Under the pieces are notes generated by a model. That model searched no databases. It was not told the DNA's origin and worked only from the letters and a program-made list of their open reading frames with translations. Position numbers and translations under genes: made by a program. From IMG/VR virus record IMGVR_UViG_3300045988_062714, positions 36,078-100,077 of that record: DNA of 64,000 bases. One strand, 5' to 3'. This document shows, piece after piece, positions 3-62,440 of this stretch (position 1 is its first letter; each line of letters starts with the position of its first letter). This DNA comes from a virus.

Positions 3-888
3 CGTTCTGGGCTTCCAGAATCCTATTTAGCGGCTATATGTGCAGACTTCTAGGAAAGACTTGGCAGATTTCCCCACCTTGATGAAATTAAGGGAGTAGA
101 TTCTTCAAATTATTTGACAGAAGAGCTAAATATTAAACGTGGGATTACGAAGGAATAGTAGATTTATAGGCTTACTGGGAAAAATGATTTACAATCTTCA
201 TAGGTATGGATAAATGATAACTTTAGAGACCTAGAAGTGGAGTTTTCTCCATTCTTTGGCGATATTAAGGTATATATTACTCATAGACCTATTACTCAAG
301 AAATCTCTACTCCTGTAAGTCATTCTAAAATAAGCGATACGCTAGTTGTAGAGGAGATTGTAAGTAAATTGCGGGACGTATATGGACTACCAGTAGAATC
401 TGTTATAACAGAGGATTTAAATGAATATAAAGAATCTCCAATTTTTTCGGAAGGTGGGATAACTTATGTAAATGCAGATGCTGTTACCCTAGATACCCCA
501 GTAATAGAGCTAATTCCTCTGTTAATTACTTCACTCCACGGTACAGAACTTTACGATAAGCTAATTAAAGATAACGAAAAAGAATTTTCTAAAGAATTAA
601 GAAATAGAATAATAGATAAAAGCGAAAAATTATAGTTTCTTCCAACCAACGTATAGTATGAGTTAATGTATAATATGAAGCGTGTATTAGACTCTATTCT
701 AATGGGGGAATCTAGTATTAGAGATATTAATGACGATATATTATTCAACAGTACTTTGAGGTCACTTGCTAGAATAGTTAACTCTAAAATCGATGTTTCT
801 AATTCTAATATACTAAGTCTGGATTTGGAAGAAAAGCACAAATAGTTAATGGAAGAAGGGAAGGTAACTGAATACTGTCATGTCTGAA
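3..888 (+). CDS. Late-module protein, N-terminally truncated by the window. Frame 3 is open only if TAG is sense. In-frame TAG at 51, 156, 159, 201 and 633; real stop TGA at 886-888.
   Basis: Frame 3 from base 3 to 888 has no TAA or TGA but five TAG codons. The stop overlaps the ATG of the next gene (ATGTCTGA). Confidence 0.5.
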
Positions 889-3800
889 TGTATATATAAA
901 TTTAAAGACCACGAATTTAGTAGTAAAAAGGAGTATGAAAACTTTCTACTACAAAAAGGAGACGAACTATACGAAATCTACGGGGATTTGGTATTTAATG
1001 CTTTAGATAACGTAATAACTTAGGAAGCTTTAAAGAAAGTTAAAGCAGAGGCTCAAAAGCATGTTAAAGCTTATGCTGAGGCTAAGAAATTATACTAGGA
1101 TGGAGAAGATAATCTAGAATTTAAACGCCCTTATATTGGTGTAACGGAATTTCTCGCGGATCTTACTAATTCTAAAGACTAGCTTTTAATGCCTTCTTTT
1201 AGAGAATTTGAATATTGGAGAAGACGTATTAAGGACTGGAAAGATCCCACTAAAGGATTTAATAATGACGAAATAGAACTATTCGGGAAGAATGTAACCG
1301 TTACCGATAATGTTAGCGAAGACTAGCTGAAGGAGTATTTAGATAACTTTGATAATAATTCAGAAACTACCAGTTAGACTTTAGGATTAATCAAACAAAT
1401 GAAGGATAAGTGGAAAGCACAGGGCGAATTAGGTACAGAGATCCATAGTATCTTAGAAATGCTTTTCAGAACTACAAAGGCTGGATTACTTATCACCCAG
1501 AGTGACAAAGCCATTAAGAGCTATATAAATTTACAGTATAAAGACAAAAAATTAAAGCAGGATACTATAAATAGTATAATTAAGTATGGAAAAAAGTTAC
1601 ACGAAGATTTAATTAATACATATGGACAGAATCTAACTTTCTTTCCTGAGTTTAAAGTAGTTACCAAGTTGGGATATGAGATCGAAGGGAAAGGAGATAC
1701 CATCTTAGGAAAGATAGACCTATTGGTAGTTGATGGGGATGGGTATGCTCATGTTATTGACTATAAGACTTCCCCTAAAGATTCTTTTGATTCTGCGAAA
1801 CAGAGAGCTTTTTGGTATCAGATGGGATTATATCATAGAATGATTGAGAATGCCGGAATTAGAGTTAACAGTCCATCACCTAAAGTTATTGTTGCTCCTA
1901 TAAAAATGCATAATTTCAGGTAGGAGGGAGACACTTGGGTATTTGATACTATTTCAGCTAGGTTAGGAGAGTCTACTTTGGAAGATATAACTACTAGAGC
2001 AACATTAAATGAGGTTGCTGCTAATATTGATGAGTTTATTCCTCCTACCCCAGTTATTGATTTAACTCCCAAGGAAATTGTAACTAATGTTTCGTAGGTA
2101 ATGGAGTATTCGTTTCCTAGTATAAATATGAGTAAGACTTGGGGAGACGAAGAAATAAAATCTATGATGGAAGGAAATATTGAGTAGGACCCAGAGTCTA
2201 AGAAATGGGTATTTAAAACTGAAAACTCTAAGATTCCATATACTGCTAACACTTAGGAAGAACTTTTTGAAAAAGTTAAAAAGTTCTATTAGGAAACTCT
2301 CCCAAAAAAACGCAGAGATATGGTAGCCTCTGTGGAAATGGCCTTGAAGAAAGGCATAAAAGAAAATACTAGTCTAGTTCCTTTACCAAAATAGGGAAGT
2401 ATTAATGTTAAACAAGGAGCTTCCGCAGAATGGTTCTAGAATCTAATGGGTAAGTACTGTAGGAACTATTATGAAATTATCGAAAATGAAGCAATAAAGG
2501 CTTATGGGGTTATTCTACTAAGAAACAAGCTCAACGGGTAGATTGATATATTGAAAATTACTACTGACAATCTAGATTATTCTCATAAGTTTAATAAATC
2601 TAGTAGAAGATAGTTATTAACTGGGGCATTTGAAGTAGATAGTGTATAGGCTAGGAAACCTGGTTCATTGGCTATGAAAGCTACCAATGGAAACATACAC
2701 TTGATGGAGACAATGGCAATCCTAAACTGTTTGCCTGAAATAACCTCTAAAGAAGGAATTATTGGAAATATACTTGTAGCTAATCCCCATTCTCTACAGG
2801 GTACAGCGGCATCAAACGAGGAATTAGTCTACAATTTCGGAGAGTTAGTATCCCACATTGATGGATTCTAGAATAATATTAAGAACATTAAATTTGCGAA
2901 TAAAGTAGAATTGGCTAAAAATAAGCTTAGAGAAGTATTAGAACTTGGTGCTAGCACACACTGGGAAGAGGATAAGTATAAGTTTGTAGGAAAGTATAAG
3001 GATTTATATACATAGTTGGATGAAGCAGTCTCTACTAATGACAGAAGAGATATTCTTAGAAAATTGGAGGCAATTAGGAAAAAATTAGAAGAGCCTAATG
3101 GAGGTTTAAGAACTGAGTAGATAACATCGTTAGACACTTATAGTGAGGAGGGAAATGAGTAGAGAACTTTATATAATCATATAATGTTAGCTATTGCTGA
3201 AATATAGGGAGTGCAGTTTAGACAGCAGACTAAAGACAACGAGAAGTATCTTGAGAGCATGAATATATTTAATAACGGGGTTAAATCTCTGATGTTAGAT
3301 AATCCAGGAAATCTAGATAATGCTACTCTAAATAAATTAACCTCTCTTATTACTGAAGCTTATTAGAACACTCGTGAGGATATGATGAGGGAGACTCCAA
3401 TTATTAGAGAGCTAGTAGAGGAACTAAAGAAAAGCAAAGGGTTTGGAAAGCTATCAGAAATGACTGTTGGCAATTAGGCAAGCTTGTATAGAAATATGAT
3501 AGAGTATAAAGATGGCGATATTCTATTTAAGAATCCCTGGAGCAACAAATTCTCTGGTACTGAACAGGAAAAGAAATTTCTTAAATATGCTCTTACTAAG
3601 ATAAATTAGGATAGGTTTGGAACTGATGAATTGGATGAAATGATAACTACAGAAGATGTTAGATTCTTTAGAGTTCCATTGGCTGTAGGAAGTTTATCCT
3701 CACAAGCTTCTTAGTTAGGAAGTATTGCTGAAGCATTCAAGAAGAGATTAGTTAGTAGATTGAGTCCAAAAAGATGGTGGGAAGAAACACAGAAATAGTT

Positions 3801-5589
3801 TCTAGGAGTATTCTCAGATGTCTAGAATCCCTCTTCTGAAGGAGAATTATTTCAGATGAATAATATGTTTGATGCTGGAAAGAATACAGAGTAGAGACTA
3901 GAGAAGATTGCAGAGAAGGGATATGATTATTTTGAGAATAATCTAGAAACTTTGTTATTAAAGCATATATTTGCTTACTCTACTAAGAAAAACGTTGATT
4001 TAATTATGCCAATGGCTAAAGCATCAATGATCCATGTAATCACTTAGGGATAGTTAACTAATAAAAAGTTTACTAATACTGCCAATTATATCACAGATTA
4101 TATAAAATCTCATATTAAAAACGAATCTTTAATTCCTGAAAATTAGTAGAATTTTAATGCTATTGTTAGCAGAATTAAAAATGCGGCATCATTCTTGGTG
4201 CTGGGATTTTCTCCTATTTAGTATGGCTACTAGATGATATAGGCTCTTTGGACCGATATAAGGCTAATGTATTAGGGAAGAGGAGATGAAAACACTCCTT
4301 TCACCTTTGAGAATTTTGCATTTGCTTTTAAAGAAGTTTATAGAGAACTATTTACTCTTGGAGGAAAGCCTACTAAATGTAGCCTATTAAATGATATGTT
4401 TGCTATTAACGATAGAGATATGAATACTTATGCAGAACAGACTAAATCAGATAGGTATGGAATATTCAATATGTCTAATATTGCTTTTCACTGCACCAGC
4501 AGACCAGATTATTACAGTAGAATGTCTATATTTGTCACTTAGTTAAAATAGGATGGCAGTTATGATGCCTATGAAAAAGTTGGAAACAAACTAGTATATG
4601 ATTGGAAAAAGGATAAACGCTTTGAAGCATATGCTAATGGAAGGACTGATGACCCCAAATATAACGAACAAAAAGGGTTATATTACGCTATAGCTGAGTA
4701 GTTAGAAATAGAACATGCTAAAAATGCTGACGGTAGTTTATTCTAGATCGGACAACCTTTACCTAAATCTCATACAAACCAGCAGATTGAGAGTTTCAAA
4801 TCGTTAGCTGATGATATTTATGGTTACTATGCCCACGAAAAAAAGGCAATGATTCATTCCTATACTCTCGGAGCCTTGTGGATGCAAATGAGAACTTTCT
4901 GGTCTGGTAAGAAAAACCAGTATTTGGGAGGATAGGGTATCAAATTAAAAGGACGCTATGCTCAGTAGAAGGATGCTAATGGTAATTTGTTATACCTCAC
5001 CGAAGAAAATGGCAGAATGATACCAACTACAGAAAATACTGGAGTTCCAGTAGTAAAGTGGGAGGGAGAATGGTAGGAAGGAATTATGCTAACCTTATCA
5101 TAGTTAATATCTGGAACCTTTCAAGGAGATGGATTAAAGCATACTTTCGAAGATATGTGGTATAATGAGGATGAGAAGCTTAGAAATCTCTATAGAGCCA
5201 ATTTACGACAAATCTAGTATGATTTACTAATGTTCTTTATTGTTGGTTCTCTTGTCACTGGAACATTAGCCGATTGGGATGATGAAAACATGAAGAAAGC
5301 TAAGGATTCTAGAGATATAGACGATGCAGCTATAGCAGCTGCTGCTCATATGGCATGCAAGATGGTAAGTTCGTCTTTTTTAGACCTTAACTTTATTGAA
5401 TCTATTGGAGGACCACTAGTTTATTGGCAACCAATGTCATTTAGTTATTTTTCTAGAAGAGCCGAAGATATATATAATATAGCATTTGGGGATACTTCTT
5501 TTACTGATGCTCTTATTAGAATGTCTTCATTAACAAATAATACTAAGATATTTTGGAATACTTTACTTCCTGAAAGGGAGTAGGAATAA
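877..5589 (+). CDS. Giant late protein of about 1570 aa, probably virion-associated, with about 45 in-frame TAG codons read as sense. Contains a PD-(D/E)XK-like segment (IDLLVVDGDGYAHVIDYKTS).
   Basis: I read frame 1 codon by codon from 877 to 5589. It has zero TAA or TGA and many TAG, and terminates at TAA 5587-5589 just before a hairpin terminator. It joins track ORFs 1399-1923, 2668-2871 and 5230-5583 in one frame. Confidence 0.6.
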
Positions 5590-14863: not shown

Positions 14864-15487
14864 TTATTTCTGGTTATAGTATAAAAGTGTAGGATTATTG
14901 TCATGTATATCTATTGGGTCTAACTGATACAAGGCTAGCTTCTGAGAAAACTGTTGCCTGTCAAACCCGTTAGAAATAAGGTGATATCCATTTACAGTCG
15001 GAATGATGTGTCTAATTCTCTCTCCTTCCGAACCTCTACACTCTTTGATTAGAGAAATTATTTTCTGTTGATACCCATCATCTTTAGAATCTATATCAAC
15101 TATCCATAATTTCTTATAGTTTGTACTTCTGCTAGCACCAGTAGCTCTGTCATATACAGCAATACCTTGTCTAGTATTTTTATTCTTTATTAAGTCAGTA
15201 AACTGCTTAATAGATTCGCAAGCTATATCGAAAGTATTTCTTGGATTTATCCAGAAATAAGCACGAGCGTTATTACTATTACATAGGTCTTTTATGTAAG
15301 GTTCTTGTCTTAGAAATTCTTCCTTGGTAAAGAAATAGAAACTTCTAATAGTTCTAGCGCCAGAAGTATATGATGAGAGTTCTACTCCATCCTTCTTACG
15401 TTGAATTATTTGTACGAAATAGAAATCATCCTTGTCTATTAATTCATCAAACAATTTAGATAAATATTCAAAATTATCTACTATCAT
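14864..15487 (-). CDS. Hypothetical protein.
   Basis: 207-aa ORF. Confidence 0.4.
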   Translation of the reverse strand: MIVDNFEYLSKLFDELIDKDDFYFVQIIQRKKDGVELSSYTSGARTIRSFYFFTKEEFLRQEPYIKDLCNSNNARAYFWINPRNTFDIACESIKQFTDLIKNKNTRQGIAVYDRATGASRSTNYKKLWIVDIDSKDDGYQQKIISLIKECRGSEGERIRHIIPTVNGYHLISNGFDRQQFSQKLALYQLDPIDIHDNNPTLLYYNQK

Positions 15488-15954
15488 TAAAACATTCCTC
15501 CAAATATTCCGTTAAACAATCTATCATTAAAATACTCTGGTACACATTTAGTTATAATAAGTTGTCTAAATGCATCTCCATGTTTTCTTCTTAAATAATC
15601 CTCAAGAGAACATTTTGCCATCAATTCATTATCTTTGTTCTTAACCTTTATTTCTTTATCGTAAAGGATTTCGTTAAATAAAACTACATTGTAGTTAATC
15701 CTATAATTCATTTCTAAGCTCTTCTCTTATTTGTTTTTTGATAAGCTGTCTAGCTTTTCTCTTATTTACACAATCTATCATGATTTCCCCAAATCTTTTG
15801 AAGTATATTTCTCCTCCCCATCCTTTCCATCCTTGAGAGCCATAAGCACGTCTTTTTCTTCGTCTCTCTTTTTTACCTTCATTGTCTAAGTATGGGGAAG
15901 GAAACCTATTTTTTGGGTTATGTGCTACTGGATGATGCTCATCAAATGTTCTGC

Positions 15955-16740
15955 TCATATAAGCTTCTCTATATAGTCTCTCCCTTCTCCAGTAAAGATT
16001 GGAATCTCATCGTCAATATACCAATAACCTCTGAGAGTTTGGTTCATAGTCTGATGATACTTCTTGATACAACAGCTTCCTCTTCTAAACTTAGTAGGAT
16101 AATCATTCCAATTAATTCCCTTCTCTTGGAAAAGTAGTTCTTGAATCTGATTAGTATTTAATCCTTCTAACTGCTTATGAGAAAAGTAAGCTTGCCCAAC
16201 AGATTGAATACTATTTCGTGTAGCGTCTTGCTGTCTCCATAATATACAATTAGTTACCTCTTCCTTGGGGATATTAAAGCATCTTGCATCAAATACCGCA
16301 CCTGATTTAATAGCACGTATGTAGGATTTAGCCAGATTTTCGTCTCCTAATTCACCTTTCCAAGAAAGTTCGTTAACTTGCACTTGGAATTGTCTATTAA
16401 AGATAAAGGTGGCCATAGATGCAGCTACACTACAGATTTTTTGTACTTCGTAATCAAACCAAGCATCTGTAGTAAGTTTTTGGTAGTCTATCAGAACTAG
16501 CGTAATTTCATCAGATTGTGTATATCCCAAGACACATCCCTGAATGTTTTCACACAGATATTTCATAGTTTCCTGCATGGCTTTGGACATACACTCATCA
16601 AAGGGCTTAACAAAACCCTTTGTGAATGTGTGAAATGCTTTTCCATCTAATCGGATGATTACAGGAGTTCTTCTCATAAGTGATGTCTTAGAACGCGCTT
16701 CATAATAAAGCTTCATTCTATCTCCAAATTCGTCTTTCAT
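15955..16740 (-). CDS. Thg1-like protein (tRNA-His guanylyltransferase family 3'-5' nucleotidyltransferase), a likely tRNA 5'-end repair enzyme.
   Basis: RLDGKAFHTF...KPFDE...LGYTQSDEITLVL matches the Thg1/TLP catalytic motifs (RxDGRxFHxF, FExPxD, YxQSDE). Confidence 0.6.
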   Translation of the reverse strand: MKDEFGDRMKLYYEARSKTSLMRRTPVIIRLDGKAFHTFTKGFVKPFDECMSKAMQETMKYLCENIQGCVLGYTQSDEITLVLIDYQKLTTDAWFDYEVQKICSVAASMATFIFNRQFQVQVNELSWKGELGDENLAKSYIRAIKSGAVFDARCFNIPKEEVTNCILWRQQDATRNSIQSVGQAYFSHKQLEGLNTNQIQELLFQEKGINWNDYPTKFRRGSCCIKKYHQTMNQTLRGYWYIDDEIPIFTGEGRDYIEKLI

Positions 16741-17255
16741 TTCTCCTTTCTTATATTAATGTTTCCGTAGTATAAACTACCACTAACTATATACTTGAAG
16801 TCTTTTCCTTCCTTTATGAAAGTTACCCAATAGTCTATATCCCAGCCATTAGTTTCTATGTTAGTATCAGTCCATCCTAACTCCTCTAACACTTCTTTAA
16901 CCAATGCAAACGAGATACAGCCTGCACTAAACTCTTCTGGTTCAGATTCCATAATGTGAAACAGTTGGTCTGAGATATTCCTAAGGTCTTGGGTGATTAT
17001 TTCACCTCTATTAACTAGTTTTGCATTGTCCCAGACAACCTCGTCTTCGTGGTAAATTTCTCTGGTAGCAGACCCATTGTTCTCTTCTGGAGCTAAGTCG
17101 TCAGTACTTTCATAAAGTTGTTCACTATCGTAGCAATCTACCTCTCCGTCCTTTACTTTTTCTATAGCTTCCTCTAATGTTTCGGCTTCTACTTCATAGT
17201 AATACCTATTCCATGTACGAGATAGTACATCCTCGTAGAGATTAAAACTGTTCAT
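16737..17255 (-). CDS. Hypothetical protein.
   Basis: 172-aa ORF. Confidence 0.4.
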   Translation of the reverse strand: MNSFNLYEDVLSRTWNRYYYEVEAETLEEAIEKVKDGEVDCYDSEQLYESTDDLAPEENNGSATREIYHEDEVVWDNAKLVNRGEIITQDLRNISDQLFHIMESEPEEFSAGCISFALVKEVLEELGWTDTNIETNGWDIDYWVTFIKEGKDFKYIVSGSLYYGNINIRKEK

Positions 17256-17794
17256 AACTTATCAATTAAGATTTCTTCGTCTAAATCTTTTCCACTATAG
17301 TCTACAATTTTGAGTATCCAATTCCCTTTAAATCGAGCTTTGCATACTTCCTTAGCTAGAGCTATTACATCTTCTGGAGAATGGAAGGCATTAGTATTGT
17401 CACCAATTTCATATCCACACCACCGTGAATTATCCTCTTCAATTTCTTCACGAGTAACCGGCCGCACTAGTTCGATATGATACATTCCTCCAGCTAGAGG
17501 ATTTTTTTCTTCAGCATCATAGGTTTCTGAACACATAGTCATTGTGTTTGGACTATCTTCCTGACTAAAGCTTATACCTTCTATGTCTAAATTGCCATAG
17601 TAATGAACTGCATTCCAACTAGTTCCTATATAGGTAGTTACGTTTAAAGTAATTCTTCTAGGACGATTATGTTCTCTCCATGGGCCTCTAGTGATAAATC
17701 TAGGAATAGATATATCCAATCCAGCATCATCAGAGATTATCTCTGGATAATCCCTTCTGTCCCAACAATGTTCTACTGCTTTATTTAAATCCAT
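17252..17794 (-). CDS. Hypothetical protein.
   Basis: 180-aa ORF. Confidence 0.4.
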   Translation of the reverse strand: MDLNKAVEHCWDRRDYPEIISDDAGLDISIPRFITRGPWREHNRPRRITLNVTTYIGTSWNAVHYYGNLDIEGISFSQEDSPNTMTMCSETYDAEEKNPLAGGMYHIELVRPVTREEIEEDNSRWCGYEIGDNTNAFHSPEDVIALAKEVCKARFKGNWILKIVDYSGKDLDEEILIDKL

Positions 17795-18730
17795 TTAAAA
17801 CTTTCCGTCATTAGGTTGTAAACAAGTAATGCCTAAGTCTCTCCACATTCTTACACATTTTGTACTATCTTCGAGTACGATAGGGACATAATACTTGTCC
17901 TTTACATATTGCTCGTATAACTTTTTCTTACAGTCTGGTCCTGCTGAATAATCTCCTTTAGGTCGCATAAGAACCATGTCTGGACATAGTAGGTGCGCAT
18001 CAAGCCATTTCTCAGTAGCTACGCGAGATTCCGGAGTATCTTCTCTACCAGTAAGAATGATTAACTCTGCATTGTGGAAATTACAATAAGCTCTTACTAA
18101 GCCAACTATTTCATTAATTGGTTCATCTTTTTCCATACCCTCGGCAGCACCTTCTCCATAGAAGGGACGACCACTAGTATTTAAGCACAACGTAGCATCC
18201 ATATCACATATAATAGCTACTGGCAAATCGGGATTCTGTTGACTTGCCTTAGCCTTCATTGCCATAATATCCTCGTGAATGATAAAGTTTCTATAGCGTC
18301 TCCATGTGTCTTTAATAACCTTTGCTCCTATAGGATTTAGTCGAGATGCGTCTCGACGAATACATTCTTCAACAGGAGTCCAGAAATCTTTAAACTCTAC
18401 TTCATACTTCCATCCATACTCACCTCGTACTCCTCTATTAAATAGATCAACCTCAGATTCTATTTCGGCAACAGTCTTGGGATTTAGGTTCATATTGTCT
18501 ATTACAATATCATACTTACGGGCCATAGAATCAAGCAAGAATCTATCATAAAGACATTTAACTAATTTCTCTCTGCTAGGAATCCAATAATCTCCTAGCA
18601 TATTACGAATATCGTCATTATTAAATCTCACTCTATGTTCTGGGTCTTCGTGACACCATTGTTTAGCCCATGTACTCTTTCCAGAGCCTTGTATTCCTCT
18701 ACATATAATTATTTTTCTTGTTTCCATCAA
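17795..18730 (-). CDS. pnk: Polynucleotide 5'-kinase/3'-phosphatase (T4 Pnk-like).
   Basis: N-terminal P-loop CRGIQGSGKSTWAK. C-terminal HAD motif IICDMDATL (DxDxT). Confidence 0.65.
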   Translation of the reverse strand: MMETRKIIICRGIQGSGKSTWAKQWCHEDPEHRVRFNNDDIRNMLGDYWIPSREKLVKCLYDRFLLDSMARKYDIVIDNMNLNPKTVAEIESEVDLFNRGVRGEYGWKYEVEFKDFWTPVEECIRRDASRLNPIGAKVIKDTWRRYRNFIIHEDIMAMKAKASQQNPDLPVAIICDMDATLCLNTSGRPFYGEGAAEGMEKDEPINEIVGLVRAYCNFHNAELIILTGREDTPESRVATEKWLDAHLLCPDMVLMRPKGDYSAGPDCKKKLYEQYVKDKYYVPIVLEDSTKCVRMWRDLGITCLQPNDGKF

Positions 18731-19477: not shown

Positions 19478-20284
19478 TTATTTTTCACTAGTTGGCTTAA
19501 GCCATAAATTAGTGTTCTTAAAAATGTAATCTCTTAAATCAGTGAGTTCAGATAACCACCCTAGAGTTAAAGATGAGTTACACTTAAAGCACTTTGTCAG
19601 TTCTTCCCTTATTCTCTCCTCAGATACTACTGGCATTTTGTCTAAATAGTCATAAGCCTTCATAGCCTGCCACATATCTTCAGATACCCGTAGTCTCTTG
19701 GTAATAGAGAATCTTATGCCTCTGAGAATCCTTAAAGGGTCATCATCAAAGGTTATAATAGGAGGTAATGGAGTCCTAAGAAGTTTCTCCTTAATATCTT
19801 TAAGACCTCCAAAATAATCAATGATTTCTCCAGTATCAGGGTCTTTAGCTAAAGCATTAACAGTAAAATCCCTACGTAATAAATCATCATAGAGATTTCC
19901 TGGCTCAACTATTGGAGTTCTAGTACCTGGAATGTACCCTACCTCCTTACGAGCCATTACAAAATCAGCCACTCCTTGATACTTATAGCCCTCCGGAAAC
20001 CTAGCTCGAATTGTATAGCAGTCTGGAGTTACTAAGAAGATTTCAAACTTTTCTGCTATTAAATGTTCCCATAATAACTGAAACATATCACAGGTAGTCA
20101 AGTTTTCCTTTAAAGCTTCCTCGCATGGAACTGCTACATAATCAATATCCTTATTAGTAAGGCCGAGAAGTTCATCCCGTACCTTACCTCCTACTTCGTA
20201 AAACTTAAACATCTCCATTTTCAAATAATTCTCTAATATCATAGCAGTCAATATAGGGAGTTCCACTTGCAGTTTCTTTTTCAC
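19478..20284 (-). CDS. cca: tRNA nucleotidyltransferase (CCA-adding enzyme) or poly(A) polymerase head-domain protein.
   Basis: GGKVRDELLG followed by a DIDYV (DxD) motif. Confidence 0.6.
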   Translation of the reverse strand: MKKKLQVELPILTAMILENYLKMEMFKFYEVGGKVRDELLGLTNKDIDYVAVPCEEALKENLTTCDMFQLLWEHLIAEKFEIFLVTPDCYTIRARFPEGYKYQGVADFVMARKEVGYIPGTRTPIVEPGNLYDDLLRRDFTVNALAKDPDTGEIIDYFGGLKDIKEKLLRTPLPPIITFDDDPLRILRGIRFSITKRLRVSEDMWQAMKAYDYLDKMPVVSEERIREELTKCFKCNSSLTLGWLSELTDLRDYIFKNTNLWLKPTSEK

Positions 20285-22600: not shown

Positions 22601-24790
22601 TTAATGAATCCAATGATCTGATACAGTAACATCTGCACCTAAAAATACATTAGGACAGAATGGTTTCCCTCCATCTATCATACATTTAACTAATACCTTA
22701 GATACTTCATCGGCAATAGATTCTGGGCATTCTAGATTAAACTCGTCATGGACTGGAACACACATCTTAACAATGTTAAGAAGCTTATGCTCCTTAATCC
22801 AATTAAATAGTTTAATAGAGGAAAGTTTAAAACACATTGCTCCCCTGTTCTGAATACGATAATTGATAGACTGCTTTTCAGATGCTGCTTTTCTCTGAAA
22901 ATATCTCTTAACGTCTTGGACGGTATCACAGCCAGGAGAATCTCTCTTCATTTCTCTGTAATAATCCCAGAACTCTGGGTCATTGAACTTCTTAGAAATC
23001 CGCCAGAGGTCATCAATATCATATATATGTGCTCTATGCTTAGTTATAGGATTTAACAAAATATAACCATCCCTCATTACCGCCATTCTACAATAATCTT
23101 GATACTGTTTTACTCCGGGGAAACCCTTCATAAAGTTATCATAGATTTCTTGAGCTTCTGACAACGGTAGACCCTTGTTATTAGCTATAGTATTTGCATC
23201 GCCTCCATAATTGATGGCAAATTCAATACCTTTAGCATCCTGTCTTTGGGCATGATATAATTTAGCTATATCCCCTATAGGGCAGTCTCTAGGGATAATA
23301 TTCGGATAAGACATTTTAGCTACTAGACTATGAACATCCCCACAGCCATGTTCAAATAGTTCAATCATAGCCTCGTCCTTAGATACAGAAGCAATGATTC
23401 TACTTTCTTGAGACTGATAATCCGCAGAAATCCACTTATTACCTTTCTCTGCAGTAAAACATGCTCTAGTTTCCTTGTCATGAGGTAAATTCTGTAGATT
23501 AAGTTTATATACTCCTCCTCCAGAACTTACTCTAGCTGTATCAGCTCCTAGTGAGTGAAAATCTACATGGATTCTTCCAGTCTTAGGGTTAATTGCCTTC
23601 AACCAGTTTTCCCCATAAGTAGAAACCACTTTTGCAGCTTCCTGATATTTTAGATAGATAGGAATAATCGGGAAATCTTTAGCCTGTGGAGCTAGAAGCT
23701 TAGCTTCAACAGATTTCTTTTCCTTCTTAGTTTGCTTATCAAATGTCTTGACTTTAATTCCTAATAATTCAAATAACTTGGTAACTTGTTGAGAGCTACT
23801 CCAGTTAATTGTGCACTTAGGCTTGGTATCAAAGCCATTAAATAAATCACCTTGATTATCTACCTTAGTAAATTGACTTATTACTCTTTTTCTATAAGCT
23901 TTAACCTTTCCGTCTGGTGTTTCAAGGTCTTCCTGAGGGCATCGGACATATTTCTCTTTTAGCAGTCTAGCTACTTCATCCTCTATTTCCATAAGATTAT
24001 AAAATTCCAGTTCTGGGTATTTAATATCCCATCCATCATGCTCATGTCTCTTTTCAGAATCCCATTGAACTACCCAATCGTTTAGTTCTTGCTCAGCATC
24101 CTTCAGCTTAACAAGGTCTTTAGCCATCTTATTTCTCCATTTTACGACATCTAGATGAACACCGCAATGCTTGAAATAAGCAAGACTCTTGATAAACTCA
24201 CACTCAAGTTTCATAGCAAGATTTAATTCTTGCTTAGCAAGCTCTATTTCTTGTTTTTCTTTAATGTCTTCTAGCCACATTACGTCTCCTGCAGCATAGA
24301 CTACTACATCTTCAGTAAGACCATCATTTATAATCTTACCTCGAACAGATTTATCTAAGTCATAGTTTAGATAATTCCATGCAGCTGCTTTCAAACTCAT
24401 TTCTCTTATATTAGCTGGATAGCCTAACCAAAGTAATTTCTCGGCAATCATACCATCCCAGATATAATTTGGCCAAATATCCTGCACATATAAAAACCCT
24501 AAGTCAAACATTAAATTCCATCCAAGAAATACTCTATCAGACTCAAAATAATTCTTTATCTCAGCTTTCTCTTCTGCTGACATAGTTGTCCAGTCAAAGA
24601 CAACTTGATTTTCTTTGCAACCTAGTTGCACAGTTAGTAACTCCTTAGTATGCGCATCTAATCCCTTAGTTTCAGTATCAAATTGAACTAAAGAAAGAGG
24701 CAACAATATTTTCATTGCCTCCTCGAAACTTACTTCTTTGTATTTTGTAGACACAAATAAAGTTTTATTCCGACTTACTAAATAAATCAT
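22601..24790 (-). CDS. polA: Family A DNA polymerase with an N-terminal 3'-5' exonuclease domain.
   Basis: Exo I FDTETKGLD. Motif A SADYQSQESRII. Motif B RQDAKGIEFAINYGG. Motif C PVHDE. Confidence 0.8.
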   Translation of the reverse strand: MIYLVSRNKTLFVSTKYKEVSFEEAMKILLPLSLVQFDTETKGLDAHTKELLTVQLGCKENQVVFDWTTMSAEEKAEIKNYFESDRVFLGWNLMFDLGFLYVQDIWPNYIWDGMIAEKLLWLGYPANIREMSLKAAAWNYLNYDLDKSVRGKIINDGLTEDVVVYAAGDVMWLEDIKEKQEIELAKQELNLAMKLECEFIKSLAYFKHCGVHLDVVKWRNKMAKDLVKLKDAEQELNDWVVQWDSEKRHEHDGWDIKYPELEFYNLMEIEDEVARLLKEKYVRCPQEDLETPDGKVKAYRKRVISQFTKVDNQGDLFNGFDTKPKCTINWSSSQQVTKLFELLGIKVKTFDKQTKKEKKSVEAKLLAPQAKDFPIIPIYLKYQEAAKVVSTYGENWLKAINPKTGRIHVDFHSLGADTARVSSGGGVYKLNLQNLPHDKETRACFTAEKGNKWISADYQSQESRIIASVSKDEAMIELFEHGCGDVHSLVAKMSYPNIIPRDCPIGDIAKLYHAQRQDAKGIEFAINYGGDANTIANNKGLPLSEAQEIYDNFMKGFPGVKQYQDYCRMAVMRDGYILLNPITKHRAHIYDIDDLWRISKKFNDPEFWDYYREMKRDSPGCDTVQDVKRYFQRKAASEKQSINYRIQNRGAMCFKLSSIKLFNWIKEHKLLNIVKMCVPVHDEFNLECPESIADEVSKVLVKCMIDGGKPFCPNVFLGADVTVSDHWIH

Positions 24791-25322
24791 GTTGATAGAT
24801 TTCGATGTTATTTATTTCAACATCTTTGGATTTGAACCTATTATAAATAGCTTCTTCAACTGCACCTTTAATATCATCTTCATCTATTACTTCTACATCT
24901 ACGAATAACCCTAATTCAACTCCTACTTCTACCTTAACCTTAGTAGGTAGTGGTTCATTGTAAGGTGCTCTAGGGTCATTAGCTGCACCCATTGGATAGT
25001 TATCTAAAGTCGTCATATGGGTCATAAGTTAAAGGATCAACTACTTCCCAATCATCTGCGTTTATATCTTCACCATCAAAAGGATAGTAAGTACAAGTCC
25101 TATCAGAAAAGTCATACATGATAAACTGGTCATGGTATGTAATACCTACACCGTAACTACACATAAGAGCTTTCATATCATCAGGGATAGAACGCATAGC
25201 AGGTATTCCATCTCCAGAAATCATTGCAGGTATCTGCATAAATATTACCAGATTGCTCTGAAATACTTTCCTTCTTACTACTTTTCCCTCTTGTAACTTA
25301 GACAATATTTCTCCGAATTTCA

Positions 25323-26168
25323 TTACATTAAATTTTTAAGTTGATTAGAAAATCTACGTCTTAATTTAGCTAAAGCTCCCTCTTTCATCTGTCTTATTCT
25401 TTCTCCTCCAACACCGTACATATCAGCTATAATTTTAGGATTGACAGGAGCCATTCCTATACCAAATAACATACAGATTAAATCGTGCTCTCTAATTGTT
25501 AATTTAGAAAGTAGATTCTCTAGCTCTTTAGTTACATAGCTTTTATTTACTTGTTCATCAAGGGGGTCTTCACCATCTGGAATAATATCACAGACTTGAC
25601 TGTTTTCTTCATCTCCTCCTATGAAATCGTCCACAGAAACTAACTTATTAGAAAACTGTGCTAGATAGTCAATTTGCTCCCTAGGAATATCAGTCATTTC
25701 TGATATTTCTTCGGAACTTGGATTTCTATCATGCGATTGCAAGAATTTATTAGTTGCATCGAGTATACTTATTACCAATAATTGCTGAGACATTGGAAGA
25801 CGAATTTCTCGTGCTTGCCAATATATAGAATTATAGATACTTTGTCTAATCCACCATACAGCATATGACAAGAATGTCACTCCTCTTTCTGGGTCAAACT
25901 TATCAATAGCTTTCATTAATCCTTCATTTCCACTAGAGATTAAATCCATTAAAGGGATACCTCTATTCTGAAATTGCTTGGCGATAGTCACAACAAACCT
26001 AAGATTTGATTTTATGACTTGTTCTCTAGCAACATCATCTCCTTTTTGAGCCTCACAAATGAGACGAGTTACCTCAGTACTATCTAAAATCTTATATTTA
26101 GATATATCCCTGAGATAACTCGTCAACAGTGAGTCAGAACGGTCTGTGAAAATGATTTTTTTACTCAC
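25323..26168 (-). CDS. Sigma-70 family RNA polymerase sigma factor.
   Basis: Regions 2.1-2.4 (VAREQVIKSNLRFVVTIA..., DLISSGNEGLMKAIDKFDPERG, FLSYAVWWIRQSI) and a region 4 helix-turn-helix. Confidence 0.8.
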   Translation of the reverse strand: MSKKIIFTDRSDSLLTSYLRDISKYKILDSTEVTRLICEAQKGDDVAREQVIKSNLRFVVTIAKQFQNRGIPLMDLISSGNEGLMKAIDKFDPERGVTFLSYAVWWIRQSIYNSIYWQAREIRLPMSQQLLVISILDATNKFLQSHDRNPSSEEISEMTDIPREQIDYLAQFSNKLVSVDDFIGGDEENSQVCDIIPDGEDPLDEQVNKSYVTKELENLLSKLTIREHDLICMLFGIGMAPVNPKIIADMYGVGGERIRQMKEGALAKLRRRFSNQLKNLM

Positions 26169-26403
26169 CTTCTTTTACAACCTGGGCTTCTGAAATTTCA
26201 TCTTTAGGAGCATTAAGACCAATACGAATAGATAGTACTGATATATATGCTTCCATTGCTTTTAGTTGGGCGACTAGTAAGTCTTTATTAAGGTTGTCAA
26301 CCTCCTTGAACTTATCCCCTAGGATAAAATCTCTGAGCTTAACAGCACGTTCATTAACTTCGTTAAATTCTCCCAACATTCTTTGAAATACAGCTTGTTC
26401 CAT
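26161..26403 (-). CDS. Hypothetical protein adjacent to the sigma factor (possible regulator).
   Basis: 80-aa ORF. Its start overlaps the sigma gene stop. Confidence 0.35.
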   Translation of the reverse strand: MEQAVFQRMLGEFNEVNERAVKLRDFILGDKFKEVDNLNKDLLVAQLKAMEAYISVLSIRIGLNAPKDEISEAQVVKEGE

Positions 26404-43233: not shown

Positions 43234-43742
43234 CCTAAAGTTGCTAATTCTAATTCATATGCAAATCTAATTTCGTCAATATCTAAACTATAAATGCGGA
43301 ATAAAGGATCTCCATTCTGGTTATGTGGCCTATCTATTAGCAATGCTGGAAGTCCAGAGTTTATTGCCATAGTCACATTACTAATACTGTCGTCGATTAA
43401 TACATCGCATTTGCCTTTTATCAAGTCAGCCTTGTTTCCGTGCTGATAATACATTTGATAAATAGGTCTTATGGGTAAATTGTATTTAGCTAGACAATTT
43501 CGAGTATAAGTTTTACTGTTAATTCTTTTAGTCGCATAAATATGCGGCTCGAAATTCGGCTTTTCTAGCAAGGGTAAATTTTCCCAAAACTCCTTGTTGT
43601 AGCAAAGACTTACTACGTTTCGTGTAATTACGTGCTCGACTAAATCTGATTCTCTAGGGAATAGTGTTTTATATGCTCCCCAGAAATCGAAGATTGTGTC
43701 ATCCAAGTCTAACGCTATCCTTAATGGATTACATAAATTCAT
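43224..43742 (-). CDS. HAD-superfamily phosphatase (5'-deoxynucleotidase-like).
   Basis: N-terminal IALDLDDTIFDF (DxDxT). Confidence 0.5.
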   Translation of the reverse strand: MNLCNPLRIALDLDDTIFDFWGAYKTLFPRESDLVEHVITRNVVSLCYNKEFWENLPLLEKPNFEPHIYATKRINSKTYTRNCLAKYNLPIRPIYQMYYQHGNKADLIKGKCDVLIDDSISNVTMAINSGLPALLIDRPHNQNGDPLFRIYSLDIDEIRFAYELELATLGWN

Positions 43743-44191
43743 TTATCTCAGATACTTCTCCTAAATATATCCCATGTTTATCGGCAAGTTCTTCGCAGAA
43801 ATCATCATAATCCAGAAGATCATCTAAATCGTCGTACTTATTTATATACATACTCTTTATTTTTTCTTCACAATCCTCGTAGCTTCTAGCTACCACTTTA
43901 CCAATTCTACAGACTTCATCTGTATGCCATGGAAATAAATATGTGTTCATAACTCGATTACTTCAATAACATTTAATCGCTTCTTAATTAAAAGTTCAAG
44001 GTCTTCTCTATCCACGTAGACAAAGTGACTCTTTTTCAAATCAGATAATGTAGAGTCAAATTCTAGAGAAAATGCTTCCTCAGTTCTCCAATTCTTCTTA
44101 GCTGTCCTCAAATAGAGGGCATACTCGTCATCAAAGTCATTAACTACACAGTTCTTAATCGTAGGAATTGGACCTTTAACTATTAACTTTT

Positions 44192-44737
44192 TCATTTCTT
44201 AAGCAATTCATAAAAATATTCTATAGGTATTACAGCTACTTGACCCACGCTAGGTGCCCCGTTCTTTCCTGCCTTCTTCCAACATATACAGAACGGTTTA
44301 GATTTATCACTACAAGCGTCCCTAATGTCAAAATAGTTTGGCATATTTTGGGTAAACTTGGCTTGGATATTAACTGGAAGTTCATTGTTCATATCAACAA
44401 TATCTATTTTGTCAGCATCAGCCAGTTTGTTCTGGCTTCTACTAGATACACATCCTTCATATCCAACATCTCTCAATTTATGAATTATTTCTAACTCATA
44501 TTGAGAACCTTTTTGTTTACTTTTCTTCGCTTGCTTACTTCTTCTAACTGCAGGATCTGCCCATTCAAAGGTAATTCCATCTTTCGATTTAGCTCCAGAG
44601 CCAGGTTTATTAGCCCTAGCTTTAATAGAGTTTATCTCTAAGCCAGTTACTTCTGAGGCTTCTTCTATAGTTTCGAAGGTTTTCTTTTCTCCATTTTTAA
44701 ATGTAGCTGTAACACTTGTATTAGTCTACTTTTTCAT
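44192..44737 (-). CDS. Hypothetical protein whose frame opens ATG AAA AAG TAG, with TAG as codon 4.
   Basis: The track ORF 44192-44476 starts at TTG. The same frame is stop-free for a further 88 codons upstream, with no ATG, GTG or TTG, until ATG at 44737, which is followed by TAG at 44726-44728. Confidence 0.4.
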
Positions 44738-44941
44738 TCCGTTTATTCTATTTATTTTTTCATTAACTTTACATCTCTAGGGTTTCTCTAGTCAATAACG
44801 AGTTGCTCATTTATAAAGTCCAATAAGTCTTGTGTATTTACACACGCTCCGGCTGGAAGCTCACACCTATATACTGTCTGTCTAGGAAATTTGGATATTA
44901 GTGCTTCTTCGTCTCCAGAAATAAAGTTTTCTCCAGTATCA

Positions 44942-45961
44942 TTAATTACTACGTAAAATACCATTTCTTTTAAATTTGTCAATAGTTAACTTAATCAACT
45001 CCTGAGTAGCTTTTCTTCCATAGTCCCTATAGTAATCACTTATATCCTTAGCTCCTGTGTTTCTGGGAATCATTGATACGATTAATTCTGGATGTTGTTT
45101 CCTAATCTTATTAGTAAAACGAACTCCAGTTAGGTCATTATCATATAGCAACACAATGTATTTGAATCTCTGCTTTAATTCTTCTAAAACTTTGTCAGAA
45201 ACAAACTGAGTCTCAGAGTTGGGAGCTATAGCTGGTATTCCTAAAGAATATAAACACATTACATCTTTCATAGACTTAGTTATTACTACCAGTTTTCCAG
45301 TCTTAGCTAATTGTTTATAGCCTTGAATAGTCTTAGTAGAAACATTACCTATGAATCTAAACTCCTTTCGTTTTGGCATATAAATACGCCATTGCTCGAT
45401 GTTCTCTTTCTTCCCAAAATAATATCCATAGATAGGACTATGTTGGGCAGACTGTGCATATATATTTCCATTTAAGAATACAGTACTACAACTGTATACC
45501 TTAAACCTATGTAGAATATCTTTAGTAATACCAAAGCTTCCCCACCACTTCAACTCAGGTTCTGAGAACTCCTTAGCTTCTATTTGGATGAAGGTTTGTT
45601 TTTCTTCCTCAAATTTCGGCTGGATTTTTACTGCAATCTTCTTTACAGGAGAATCCTTAGTATATCCAAAGTCCTTAGCTATAATCTTTAAAGCAGTGTG
45701 ATAGTTACAATTATACTTTTCCATAACTACCCCTTCGAATGTCAAACATTTTCCGGAAGCAAAGTCCTTAAAATATAAGTTTCCAGATTTTCCTCTAAAA
45801 AAGCTGCAGGTGACATGACTGTCACTACGCAAAGGAGACTTGAACAGTCCTTTCTTAACTGGAATACCCAGATAATAAGTCATGTAAGTCTCCTCATTGT
45901 TCTTAGATAGAAGAAATTCCTTAGTAATTTTGGGTTCAAAAGTATAATCAAACATAGTCAC
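44942..45961 (-). CDS. DNA primase (TOPRIM domain).
   Basis: C-terminal TOPRIM-like VVITKSMKDVM...LLYDNDLTG (DxD). Confidence 0.5.
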   Translation of the reverse strand: MTMFDYTFEPKITKEFLLSKNNEETYMTYYLGIPVKKGLFKSPLRSDSHVTCSFFRGKSGNLYFKDFASGKCLTFEGVVMEKYNCNYHTALKIIAKDFGYTKDSPVKKIAVKIQPKFEEEKQTFIQIEAKEFSEPELKWWGSFGITKDILHRFKVYSCSTVFLNGNIYAQSAQHSPIYGYYFGKKENIEQWRIYMPKRKEFRFIGNVSTKTIQGYKQLAKTGKLVVITKSMKDVMCLYSLGIPAIAPNSETQFVSDKVLEELKQRFKYIVLLYDNDLTGVRFTNKIRKQHPELIVSMIPRNTGAKDISDYYRDYGRKATQELIKLTIDKFKRNGILRSN

Positions 45962-45995
45962 TAAGGAATTTATGAATTACTCTACTAACAAATCA

Positions 45996-46691
45996 TTATA
46001 GCAAGTTGTCAAGATCGAAGTCATTTCCTGGTGCAGCATCTACACCGGCAACATCTGCAATCGGGTCTTCTGACTTCATTTCGGTAGGCTTAGCTTTCAG
46101 ATACTTCTGACGTTCTCCCTCCTCATAGTCAGAGAAGAACAGCTTGTCACCAATATAGTTATCAGAGATGAACGACTCACCTTGTTTGTTAATACCTACG
46201 ATACGAGGTATATCAGCAACTACTTTACCATCACGGTTTCTACCAATCAACTTCAACTTAGTCTCTGTACCTTTAACTTTTTCAGTTATAGTAATCAGAG
46301 CCTTAGCTACATCATCGAAGCTCTTAAATTTAGAGCTAGCTGCTTGCATCTTTTCAAATCCTGCAGGATTGAGAACCTGTGCAGTCTGCTTAACTACAGC
46401 CATCAAAGTCTCGAAGTTGGAAGGCATGATAACCTTTCCACCATTCTTACTATCAAACTCACGTCTCTCATCATCGCCAGCTTTAGGGAAGAATTGGGTT
46501 ACAGAGAAGTAACCCTCTTCGTTCTCAAAGTTGATTGCTAGAACTTTATAATGAGCCGTTGGATCCTTTTTACCATCAAATTCTTTGATTTCACATCCCA
46601 TGAATTTTACATCATGGATGTTCCAAGGAGTTAAAGGACGACGTGTGTTTCTTACTGCTGAGTCTGCTGATATACCAAAATTAAATGCCAT
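45996..46691 (-). CDS. Putative ssDNA-binding protein.
   Basis: 231 aa with an acidic C-terminal tail ...GNDFDLDNLL. Sits in the replication cluster. Confidence 0.35.
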   Translation of the reverse strand: MAFNFGISADSAVRNTRRPLTPWNIHDVKFMGCEIKEFDGKKDPTAHYKVLAINFENEEGYFSVTQFFPKAGDDERREFDSKNGGKVIMPSNFETLMAVVKQTAQVLNPAGFEKMQAASSKFKSFDDVAKALITITEKVKGTETKLKLIGRNRDGKVVADIPRIVGINKQGESFISDNYIGDKLFFSDYEEGERQKYLKAKPTEMKSEDPIADVAGVDAAPGNDFDLDNLL

Positions 46692-60949: not shown

Positions 60950-61393
60950 TTATTCTTTCTTAGTTTCATATTCCTGACTTGCTTCAACTGCTAATTTATC
61001 TGCGAGATTATTCATCTGAGAAAAGAAGTCTGAACTTGAAGTATGTCCTTTCACCCAACAAAAATCTATATTAGGACAAAATTGCTTTGCCTTATTTAAG
61101 ACCTTGTCGTATAAATTCCATAACTCTACGTTCTTCTTTCTTTTCCATCCTTTAGTAGCACATCCTATGACGTACTGAGAATCTGAGTAAATAGTCAGAG
61201 ATTCGATTTTACGACTTACTGCATTTAGAGCATAAATTACTGCTAACAACTCACATTTGTTGTTAGTAGTATTTGGAATCATCTTGCTAAATTCATAGGA
61301 TTTTTTCCCATCAATTACGAATACAACTCCTACTCCTCCTGTATTTCTAGATGAACTAAAAGCTCCGTCAGTAAAGACCTCTAAATTACTCAT
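60950..61393 (-). CDS. rnhA: Ribonuclease H (RNase HI).
   Basis: Acidic catalytic residues in VFTDGA, ELLAV, YSDSQYV and ...NNLADKLA. Confidence 0.7.
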   Translation of the reverse strand: MSNLEVFTDGAFSSSRNTGGVGVVFVIDGKKSYEFSKMIPNTTNNKCELLAVIYALNAVSRKIESLTIYSDSQYVIGCATKGWKRKKNVELWNLYDKVLNKAKQFCPNIDFCWVKGHTSSSDFFSQMNNLADKLAVEASQEYETKKE

Positions 61394-62440
61394 TCTGAGT
61401 ATTAGTCCTGAGATTAGTTCCTAGTAGTATTGCTATCTTTAGCAGGTCGTCTTGGTTATCACAAAATATATTATCTAAAATATAGTTTGCGTAATCACTT
61501 ATTCTAACTCTCTTTCCTACAGCTCCATACTTCCCATTAAGCCACTTAATTTGTGGAATAAAGTCTTCCAAATTATCTCCAAGATGCCTCAAGGCTTTTC
61601 TAATAGAGACTGGAAACCACATTTTTTCTTTTATCCAATCTAAGTGACAATAACCAAACGCAAATGCTCTACTTAAATCCTTCTGAATAAACTCGTCTAA
61701 CTCGAAATTTCTCTCATGCCTACCAGCTTCCTCGAAATCATCTTTCAAATCCTCACAAAAAATCTGATTAAATTCAATCATAACTCCAAGTTTCTAGGCA
61801 AGCTATAAGTTCCAGCATCCCATATCTGCAATAACCTTGAATGGTCCAGTAGCTATAGAAAGATAAGGACTTTTGTTGTCATTGTACAGCTTCATTACTT
61901 CTCTTAGTAGTATACTAGCATTTCTGGATAGTTCGTAAAGAGTGGGAACTCTGTGTTCGTTCGGACCTACATACATTTTCCATGTACTTTTGCCTATACA
62001 GCGACCCTCGTCATCATATTCTCTATGACTCTTGTTCCACTGCATATACTCCAGAACCTTATCAAAATCAAAGTTCTCCATAATGCTTTTGTATTGTTCC
62101 TCCAATGGGGGACAATCATCCCTTGTCAGGACTGTTCTCTTTGTTTTGCTCATTTTTGTAACAATTAACAAGATTCTGTAAGTTGGACAACTTATCAGTT
62201 CTTACACTGACCAGTAGCCCACCCTTACGTAAGTTGTAACTAAGTTTAATTCCGCAATGATTTAGAATTTCGATAAACTCTCTCAATGCGCTTCCCTTTA
62301 ACACATTTCTGTAGACTAGTTTCTGACCATCTTGATATCCTGCTCGATAATATTCATTCGCAACATCAGAAATAAGCCATCGCTTAATAGGAGATACCCT
62401 ACTTAAGAGTTCATTGACTCTGGTTGCGATAAAATCCATA

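Follow-up and report, generated by a model that had tools for sequence, protein, structure and literature searches.

The stretch of DNA analysed here, called the window below, comprises 64,000 nucleotides of a virus (IMG/VR record IMGVR_UViG_3300045988_062714, positions 36,078 to 100,077 of that record), and our subject is a minus-strand gene in it for a predicted nuclease whose fourth codon is an in-frame amber triplet, TAG. We think it probable that this early TAG is a selected amber gate, which would hold back synthesis of the nuclease until amber suppression is active. The TAG is well supported as a selected feature; its on/off behaviour in time we infer from the signature of selection and from a published model of code switching. 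A more specific proposal, which we hold with slightly less than even confidence, is that the single start-proximal amber serves as a maintained timer that couples one nuclease, and perhaps the open reading frames (ORFs) coupled downstream of it, to the code switch of the phage.

Reading of the nuclease gene

Followed along the minus strand, the gene reads ATG (44737-44735) AAA AAG TAG (44728-44726) ACT AAT ACA AGT GTT and remains open until a TGA at 44194-44192 (Table 1). For 83 codons after the TAG its frame contains no ATG, GTG or TTG; the first start-type codon to follow, 84 codons on, is a TTG (44476-44474), and the first in-frame ATG is 112 codons downstream. Gene callers that apply the standard code begin at this TTG and so cut the protein to 94 amino acids (aa), a product that has lost the DNA-binding domain and the helix with E81, one of the catalytic residues. 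The same mis-annotation is to be expected for any singly gated gene inside 'standard-code' blocks. The 181-aa reading is already present in protein databases, unnamed, as an entry with 494 member sequences that begins MKKQTNTSV (P0002), and in the phage GenBank collection only two records carry the gene, both of them unannotated.

The first-pass annotation of this DNA had proposed a 181-aa protein that starts at the upstream ATG, and we agree, as the 83 codons that follow the TAG are conserved, purifying selection has acted on them, the domain they encode has a confidently predicted DNA-binding fold, and most lineages lack any start codon from the TAG to this domain. Its count of 88 start-free codons was close enough, although the exact figures are 87 from the ATG to the TTG and 83 after the TAG. 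Its chance probability of about 0.001 was wrong in both directions: in random sequence of the window's composition, 83 codons with neither a stop nor a start have a probability (P) of ~8e-6, and in the real coding sequence of this phage, where start-type codons make up 4.0% of codons, an 83-codon run without any of them has P ~0.03-0.04. In 90 window genes the first standard start lies a median of 5 codons after the preceding in-frame stop, and among genes above coordinate 7,700 the five largest such distances are 20, 20, 24, 27 and 75 codons; the one other long distance listed, 83 codons, falls below that cutoff, in the frameshifted gene at 6601-7492. What really stands out is a conserved extension of 83 codons ahead of the first start that could be used. 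Over codons 5-87 the ratio of nonsynonymous to synonymous divergence (dN/dS) is 0.06-0.25 in most comparisons, against saturated dS, and each half of the gene shows purifying selection; the N-terminal extension is coding, and dependent on the upstream ATG.

Is the gene perhaps a pseudogene, the product of a recent nonsense mutation or of an assembly error? Under the standard code the ORF is indeed broken. The TAG is not a sequencing error, because independent assemblies are identical through the gene: MT836281, an independent Mexican faecal assembly, is 100% identical throughout, TAG included, and the same TAG occurs in dozens of IMG/VR contigs. With both halves of the gene constrained, and with the TAG kept in orthologues down to 41% identity, the chance that the gene is decayed or misassembled seems to us negligible.

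The phage and its use of TAG

The source is a large gut crAss-like phage of ~187 kb, probably of the Zeta type. The GC content of the window is 35%, the primase DNA has weak matches to phages cr56_1 and cr50_1, and near-identical copies of the nuclease gene sit on contigs of 185-192 kb. This size, together with the heavy use of TAG, agrees with the Zeta group of Yutin et al. (PMC7886860) and with amber-suppressing Zeta genomes that are 176-189 kb long, have ~35% GC and are reported to carry the suppressor transfer RNA (tRNA) tRNA-Sup(CTA) (PMC12386605).

Two coding regimes meet in the window. The plus-strand genes at 3-5589 are rich in TAG, with 7 in the ORF at 3-887 and 45 in the gene at 880-5589, here called the late gene. 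From 7.7 kb to the window end at 64 kb runs the minus-strand replication block, among whose genes are those for a DnaB-type helicase, a primase, NrdD and a dUTPase. The nuclease is the one ORF of this block that genetic codes 11 and 15 read differently. Elsewhere in the block no gene has an in-frame TAG, apart from one ambiguous ORF pair at 61386-62201, so that the earlier description of the gene as lying in an otherwise TAG-free module is correct with that reservation; the block's stop codons are TAA in 58 cases, TGA in 30 and TAG in 4. Heavy TAG use is also found in the relatives L155, L164, L165 and L169 and in MT835492.

Judging by sequence exchange, TAG is a sense codon for glutamine (Gln) in this phage. 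Between the late gene and its L155 orthologue, which is 97% identical, 42 TAGs are kept, three are replaced by CAA or CAG and none by any other codon, and 11 CAA or CAG codons of the window gene are TAG in L155. At a protein divergence of 3%, 14 of the 74 conserved Gln sites have thus changed between TAG and CAA/CAG. TAG accounts for 60% of the Gln codons of the late gene, and when TAG was masked before alignment, Gln was the top or joint-top residue opposite the window TAGs in four of six standard-code orthologues (15-16%, versus a background of 3-4%). Code 15 in crAss-like phages is reported to have been validated by metaproteomics (PMC9523058).

Conservation of the early TAG

Orthologue DNA was taken from IMG/VR (loci L002-L147 and L254-L333), from GenBank MT835492 (121.6 kb) and from ENA, Logan and JGI contigs. 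The ~110 unique gene sequences form 39 clusters at 90% aa identity, and these are 41-100% identical to the window protein. A protein search gave 390 relatives, most of them entries of 181-183 aa that start MKKQTNTSV, MAKKQTNTSV or MKKTQLNTSV, and the 'Q' that the databases show at the gate position proved to be TAG in the DNA in every case fetched. Exactly one in-frame TAG per gene is present in 37 of the 39 clusters. It stands at codon 3 in 6 of these clusters, at codon 4 in 6, at codon 5 in 13, at codon 6 in 10 and at codon 7 in one, 36 in all, and the remaining cluster has it at codon 10. In those 37 the gate site is never CAA or CAG, and in TAG-bearing clusters all the other Gln codons of the nuclease, 2-7 per gene, are CAA or CAG. 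The alignment of orthologues for which the first-pass annotation had called therefore finds the N-terminal extension conserved and TAG, not CAG or CAA, at the gate.

The surroundings of the TAG are, by comparison, fluid. The leader peptides from ATG to TAG include MK, MS, MAK, MSK, MNK, MKK, MAKK, MRKK, MVKK, MGKT, MAKG and MKKK, and further ones are MAKKV, MAKKY, MAKRT, MKKSN, MSKSN and MAKRKT. A conserved Leu-Asn-Thr motif follows the TAG at a distance of 0 to 3 codons, depending on the lineage, and the codon after the TAG has 19 different values. What is constant across lineages is an in-frame ATG, a few codons and then a TAG, and nothing else. As the ATG always precedes the TAG by 2-6 codons (9 in the L152 lineage), the claim that translation of the gene needs amber suppression is supported. 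In two instances the TAG has changed place. L152 and L153, which are 80% identical and sit on contigs of 186-200 kb, have GAG at the old site and a new TAG at codon 10. L334:82-624, a distant orthologue on a short contig that is not among the 39 clusters, no longer has a TAG near its N-terminus; its TAG encodes the conserved Gln in the SRS-Q-NK segment, at codon ~99 and near the nuclease active site.

Could ribosomes instead translate a mini-ORF, MKK-stop, and then re-initiate, or use a non-canonical start just after the TAG, so that suppression is not required? In L133, L135, L144-147 and L245 the TAG is followed by GTG or TTG, and gene callers predict a protein 'MNTSV...' there; in such lineages re-initiation could add leakiness. 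A GTG or TTG directly after the TAG occurs in 3 of the 37 clusters. As a general mechanism re-initiation is untenable, because a post-TAG start is absent in the other 34 (the next codon is ACT, ACA, GCT, CTA, AAT, GAC, AAA or others) and no start-type codon occurs in the 83 codons after the TAG of the window gene. Furthermore, ATG, TAG and ORF always share one frame, which re-initiation would not require. We regard this explanation as very unlikely.

Selection on the TAG

A simpler proposal is that TAG is one of three interchangeable Gln codons of code 15 and fell at codon 4 by chance. TAG is indeed read as Gln in this phage, and most Gln codons of its late gene are TAG. Against this proposal stands the depth of divergence over which the TAG has been kept. 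The synonymous divergence (dS) that separates the window gene from the other clusters is never below 0.85 and in many comparisons is saturated, and 15 of 17 invariant two-fold-degenerate columns vary synonymously among the TAG-bearing lineages. The codon for the invariant residue Gln125 is CAA 15 times, CAG twice and TAG never. In the late gene, at ~40% identity to TAG-recoded relatives, only 5-6 of 15-16 conserved window-TAG Gln sites are still TAG, which is the equilibrium frequency. If the codon in 14 clusters (defined at 70% identity) were drawn at the late-gene frequency of 0.4-0.6, the probability that all would be TAG is ~8e-4 to 3e-6, figures that are rough and approximate because the clusters share ancestry and are not independent samples.

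The comparisons indicate that the TAG itself at the gene start is under selection and is not retained by inertia, because synonymous sites are saturated and yet the TAG is kept, while in the late gene TAG is readily exchanged with CAA/CAG. Nothing at the level of the protein calls for Gln at this site, because the gate codon lies in a short unstructured tail with freely changing flanking residues, where even the amino acid should drift. The re-creation of the TAG at two other positions, and the absence of TAG from the 2-7 other Gln codons per gene, also argue against ordinary usage, which we consider extremely improbable. In this respect the suggestion that an early TAG acts as a gate and not as everyday codon choice has fared well: the site is never CAA or CAG in those 37 clusters, other Gln codons are never TAG, and interchange in the late gene is rapid.

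To the shared ancestry of the clusters must be added several points that weigh against a gate. Lineages without the TAG exist, namely the L148-L150 clade, L151, L278, and the distant L335, L337, L338 and L339, and TAG-stop usage as an indicator of the code in such lineages gave no discrimination (5.5% versus 6.2%). The window contains no tRNA gene, hence no suppressor tRNA; none was found in 31 related loci; and the partial MT835492 genome (121.6 kb) has five ordinary tRNAs and no suppressor. Lastly, the position of E55, the third catalytic acid of the Holliday junction resolvase Hjc, to which the nuclease domain is compared below, is occupied by the invariant Gln125.

How might the gate reading accommodate these points? 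A tRNA-Sup(CTA) presumably lies outside the window, as the heavy use of TAG and the literature on Zeta phages (PMC12386605) would suggest. L278 appears to be a recent loss of the TAG, because it is 94% identical to the TAG-bearing L277. For the TAG-less lineages as a whole, the gate model predicts that most belong to non-suppressing phages. Many late-gene orthologues in the phage group are without any TAG, so non-suppressing phages exist there. Six contigs hold both a late-gene locus and a nuclease locus; all six are TAG-recoded, and none of them belongs to a TAG-less lineage. Five are of the window type (e.g. L037/L155), and one, contig 054096, is distant, with 27 TAGs in its late gene (L164) and the gate in its nuclease gene (L296). 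Close relatives of P0114 or P0138 were not found in IMG/VR.

The predicted nuclease

In the AlphaFold2 model, whose mean predicted local distance difference test score (pLDDT) is 87.5, two strands and two helices follow immediately after the TAG. The nuclease domain has the restriction-endonuclease-like alpha/beta fold of Hjc, and the invariant residues E81, D112 and K127 align to E12, D42 and K57 of Hjc. Similarity to the Hjc-like resolvases (PDB 1gef, 1ob8, 2wcw and 1hh1, and 7bgs of Thermus phage 15-6) is sub-threshold, the best PDB profile match being Hjc at an E value of 0.18. In the window protein, unlike these enzymes, an invariant Gln takes the place of the third acidic residue, a DNA-binding domain precedes the nuclease domain, and there is a long basic helix. 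No Pfam nuclease family was matched by the protein, and a NUMOD-like Pfam match to its N-terminal domain is below threshold; the sole matching family is phrog_244, annotated 'RusA-like Holliday junction resolvase' (4e-10). We assume from the modelled fold that the protein is a nuclease, presumably a structure-specific or junction-type enzyme, for which junction resolution would be the activity.

A search of 1.84 billion representative proteins yielded 450 relatives, many of them nuclease-only proteins of 110-140 aa. Five proteins of ~400 aa (P0121, P0123, P0127, P0130 and P0244) carry NUMOD4 and HNH domains ahead of the same two-domain module and are possible two-nuclease homing endonucleases. 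The NUMOD-like domain recalls that of the I-HmuI type of HNH homing endonuclease, from which the window protein differs in that it has no HNH domain and its synteny is fixed. Wherever a gene table was available, from ~36% to 100% identity, the nuclease gene lies directly downstream of the Toprim primase gene and often overlaps the primase stop. In this fixed position the gene of crAss-like phages does not behave like that of a free-standing, mobile homing endonuclease.

The kinship with homing enzymes raises another possibility, that the TAG is a safety lock, tying the nuclease to the phage's own translation system and not to a point in time. Such a lock might matter in a carrier or persistent state, upon transfer of the gene to other genomes, or when co-infecting elements hijack it. 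The ~400-aa fusions speak for it, as does recombination mosaicism around the gene: in the window, the nuclease and its leader (44200-44800) are 100% identical to L001 (MT836281), while the flanking DNA is 84-95% identical, with 5-24 mismatches per 100 nucleotides over 43700-44200 and 45400-46400, a pattern that suggests recent recombination. The gene is nevertheless a stable resident with fixed synteny after the primase, unlike a sporadic mobile element, and we judge a lock of this kind quite improbable.

A proposed mechanism

In the gate reading, the nuclease messenger RNA would be made together with the replication operon, in early or middle transcription. The gene is probably co-transcribed with the primase: in the window no terminator-like site lies between them, and a scan of the primase-nuclease interval for promoters and terminators found nothing above chance, in a scan that does not model Bacteroidota promoters. 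RNA structure at the nuclease start is not significant (z -0.13). Host release factor 1 (RF1) would terminate translation at the UAG, so that ribosomes release only Met-Lys-Lys, and neither nuclease nor a DNA-binding fragment would accumulate. Once the phage's amber suppression is on, the single TAG would be read as Gln and full protein made, by the same activity that reads the TAGs of the late genes; a tryptic peptide, QTNTSVTATFK or KQTNTSVTATFK, would be the mark of such read-through. Translation of the nuclease would in this way be uncoupled from its transcription, and a DNA-cutting enzyme would be confined to the late, packaging-competent phase. An activity that cuts junctions or branches would be needed at packaging and would have to be kept off replicating DNA. 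Placing the TAG at the very start would waste the least synthesis, leave no truncated DNA-binding product, and insert Gln into a flexible tail that tolerates it.

Would one TAG be enough? Late genes contain 45-128 TAGs each, and late read-through per codon must therefore be near complete, so that one TAG would act as an off/on switch and not as a rheostat. This consideration bears on a further alternative, a dose limiter, in which RF1 competes with the suppressor at the TAG and keeps a toxic nuclease low throughout infection. A dose limiter would leave the same signature of selection as a gate, and the enzyme is a predicted nuclease. A suppressor encoded in an early tRNA block, as in many Zeta phages (PMC12386605), could moreover make any delay short. 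At the near-100% read-through that genes with 45-128 TAGs imply, however, one TAG would cut the yield only marginally, and a weaker start context would limit the dose without any stop codon. We consider a dose limiter unlikely and favour the gate, by which synthesis of the nuclease would be delayed.

Comparison with known systems

In the proposal of Borges et al. (10.1101/2021.08.26.457843), late and lytic genes are under the control of recoded stops, and a TGA-rich group I intron endonuclease, located in an early gene of Agate phages, would remain silent until late. The present case resembles their model, in which the host uses the standard code, early genes are code-neutral, and recoded stops block certain proteins, an early-region nuclease among them, until the code switches. 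There are differences. Their signal is a statistical preference for recoded stops spread over many codons, chiefly of lysis genes, whereas the nuclease gene has a single such codon and is otherwise free of TAG. Their closest case concerns TGA in an intron ORF; here it is TAG in a resident gene of the replication module, where the codon has been kept or re-created across saturated divergence.

A similar logic is known from phage T4. The messages for I-TevI, I-TevII, I-TevIII and segB of T4, and for mobE of Aeh1, have hairpins that sequester the ribosome-binding site and restrict translation to late times (PMC2988022), and gene 49 (endonuclease VII) is cited in that source as likewise present on early transcripts and translated late (PMC2988022, its ref. 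60). In both T4 and the window a DNA-cleaving enzyme would be encoded on a long early polycistronic RNA and left untranslated until late. The means differ, T4 using RNA structure and a late promoter, and the phage of the window, as we propose, a stop codon and a change of the genetic code.

Early blocks of multi-code phages are treated as dual-coded, or as a 'soft switch', in the Mgcod preprint of Pfennig et al. (10.1101/2022.06.29.495998; discussed in 10.64898/2026.08.21.746148). The nuclease gene sits in such a dual-coded block, the same under codes 11 and 15, and yet is an exception inside it. In the literature searched, a single, position-conserved, start-proximal amber in a resident gene of a replication module is not described.

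What would such a gate mean for the study of recoded phages? So far the idea that recoding serves timing has drawn mainly on statistics of codon preference and on the way recoded stops are distributed in blocks. The TAG of the nuclease is a much cleaner signature, and the comparison of lineages offers direct evidence that regulation can be what a recoded stop is selected for. A one-codon gate is easy to overlook. Its placement is economical, in that premature termination costs a tripeptide only, and it suggests a minimal element, four to seven codons long, usable as a phage-dependent expression switch. Some Zeta phages carry tRNA-Sup(CTA) with 'no suppression' in the genome (PMC12386605). If this is true, and if the gate exists in these phages, their orphan tRNA-Sup(CTA) would be regulators of a few gated genes, and not relics or anti-host weapons.

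Search for further candidate gated genes

All minus-strand patterns of the form 'ATG ... TAG ... long ORF' in the window were screened. The nuclease is the sole clear case in the early region of ~56 kb, in the window and in the 47%-identical MT835492 alike, and the same scan of the MT835492 early region returned the nuclease only. Two other candidates in the window were rejected. The one at 7353 is spurious, being out of frame within a gene that is divided between two frames, and the one at 20299 falls ahead of the true start of a gene like those for CCA-adding tRNA nucleotidyltransferases (19478-20242, minus strand; motif FYEVGGKVRDELLG), which is present in a window that has no tRNA genes.

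Several other frames are of note in their own right. At 61386-62201 on the minus strand, ORFs of 116 and 131 aa share one frame and are separated only by TAG-CTA-GCT-TAG. They might be one gene with two internal ambers, or two genes of which the first ends in TAG; a homologue of the pair was not found in MT835492. In MT835492 (L251), at 24189-25382, a frame of 398 open codons directly follows a TAG and has no upstream start codon, its first GTG being 21 codons in and its first ATG 183 codons in. The minus-strand gene at 25323-26174 has 75 stop-free codons before its first ATG, bounded by TAA and not by TAG, and probably uses GTG, TTG or another non-ATG start.

Neighbouring genes and other observations

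Table 1. Coordinates, in the window, of the nuclease gene, its parts and other features
Feature	Position	Strand	Evidence or remark
Late gene, ~1,570 codons, 45 in-frame TAGs	880..5589	+	TAG/CAA/CAG exchange with L155; Gln enriched ~5-fold at TAG-aligned sites
Downstream 82-aa ORF	43947..44195	-	ATG overlaps nuclease stop (ATGA, 44195-44192)
Whole two-domain nuclease gene	44192..44737	-	181 sense codons (TAG = Gln) plus TGA stop; DNA sequence, database proteins, orthologue DNA
Hjc-like PD-(D/E)XK nuclease domain (residues ~71-181), predicted	44195..44527	-	Invariant E81, D112, Q125, K127
TTG taken as start by standard-code gene callers	44474..44476	-	Yields 94-aa product
N-terminal NUMOD-like DNA-binding domain (residues 5-59), predicted	44561..44725	-	Lost if translation began at annotated TTG
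In-frame amber codon (codon 4), proposed gate	44726..44728	-	Sequence; TAG kept in 37/39 clusters
ATG start codon, A-rich leader before it	44735..44737	-	Sequence; in-frame ATG in every TAG-bearing lineage
64-aa ORF between primase and nuclease	44788..44982	-	Ends in TAG; in part of window-type lineage only
Toprim primase gene, directly upstream	44942..45961	-	Gene tables; in several lineages ORF overlaps nuclease start

The 82-aa ORF downstream may be translationally coupled to the gated gene (Table 1). The 64-aa ORF at 44788-44982 would be 12 codons longer, extending to a TAA, if its terminal TAG were read; in other contigs this ORF is missing and the end of the primase gene lies directly upstream of the nuclease.

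Farther away, a DUF1848-like gene at 6601-7492 on the minus strand is split over two frames, with a stop-to-start distance of 83 codons. Frame A runs from an ATG at 7492 to a stop at 7247 (...KYKCIYYYSIWN*), and frame B (...TITPYGTDIEPNVPSVDE...) continues to 6601; a programmed frameshift, an assembly indel or a pseudogene could each account for what looks like a +1 shift near 7255-7265. In L151, a relative of 220 kb, NrdD is called as three pieces at 15016-18397 with a 295-aa ORF between them, which suggests an intron, an intein or an endonuclease insertion, as reported for Zeta crAss-like phages.

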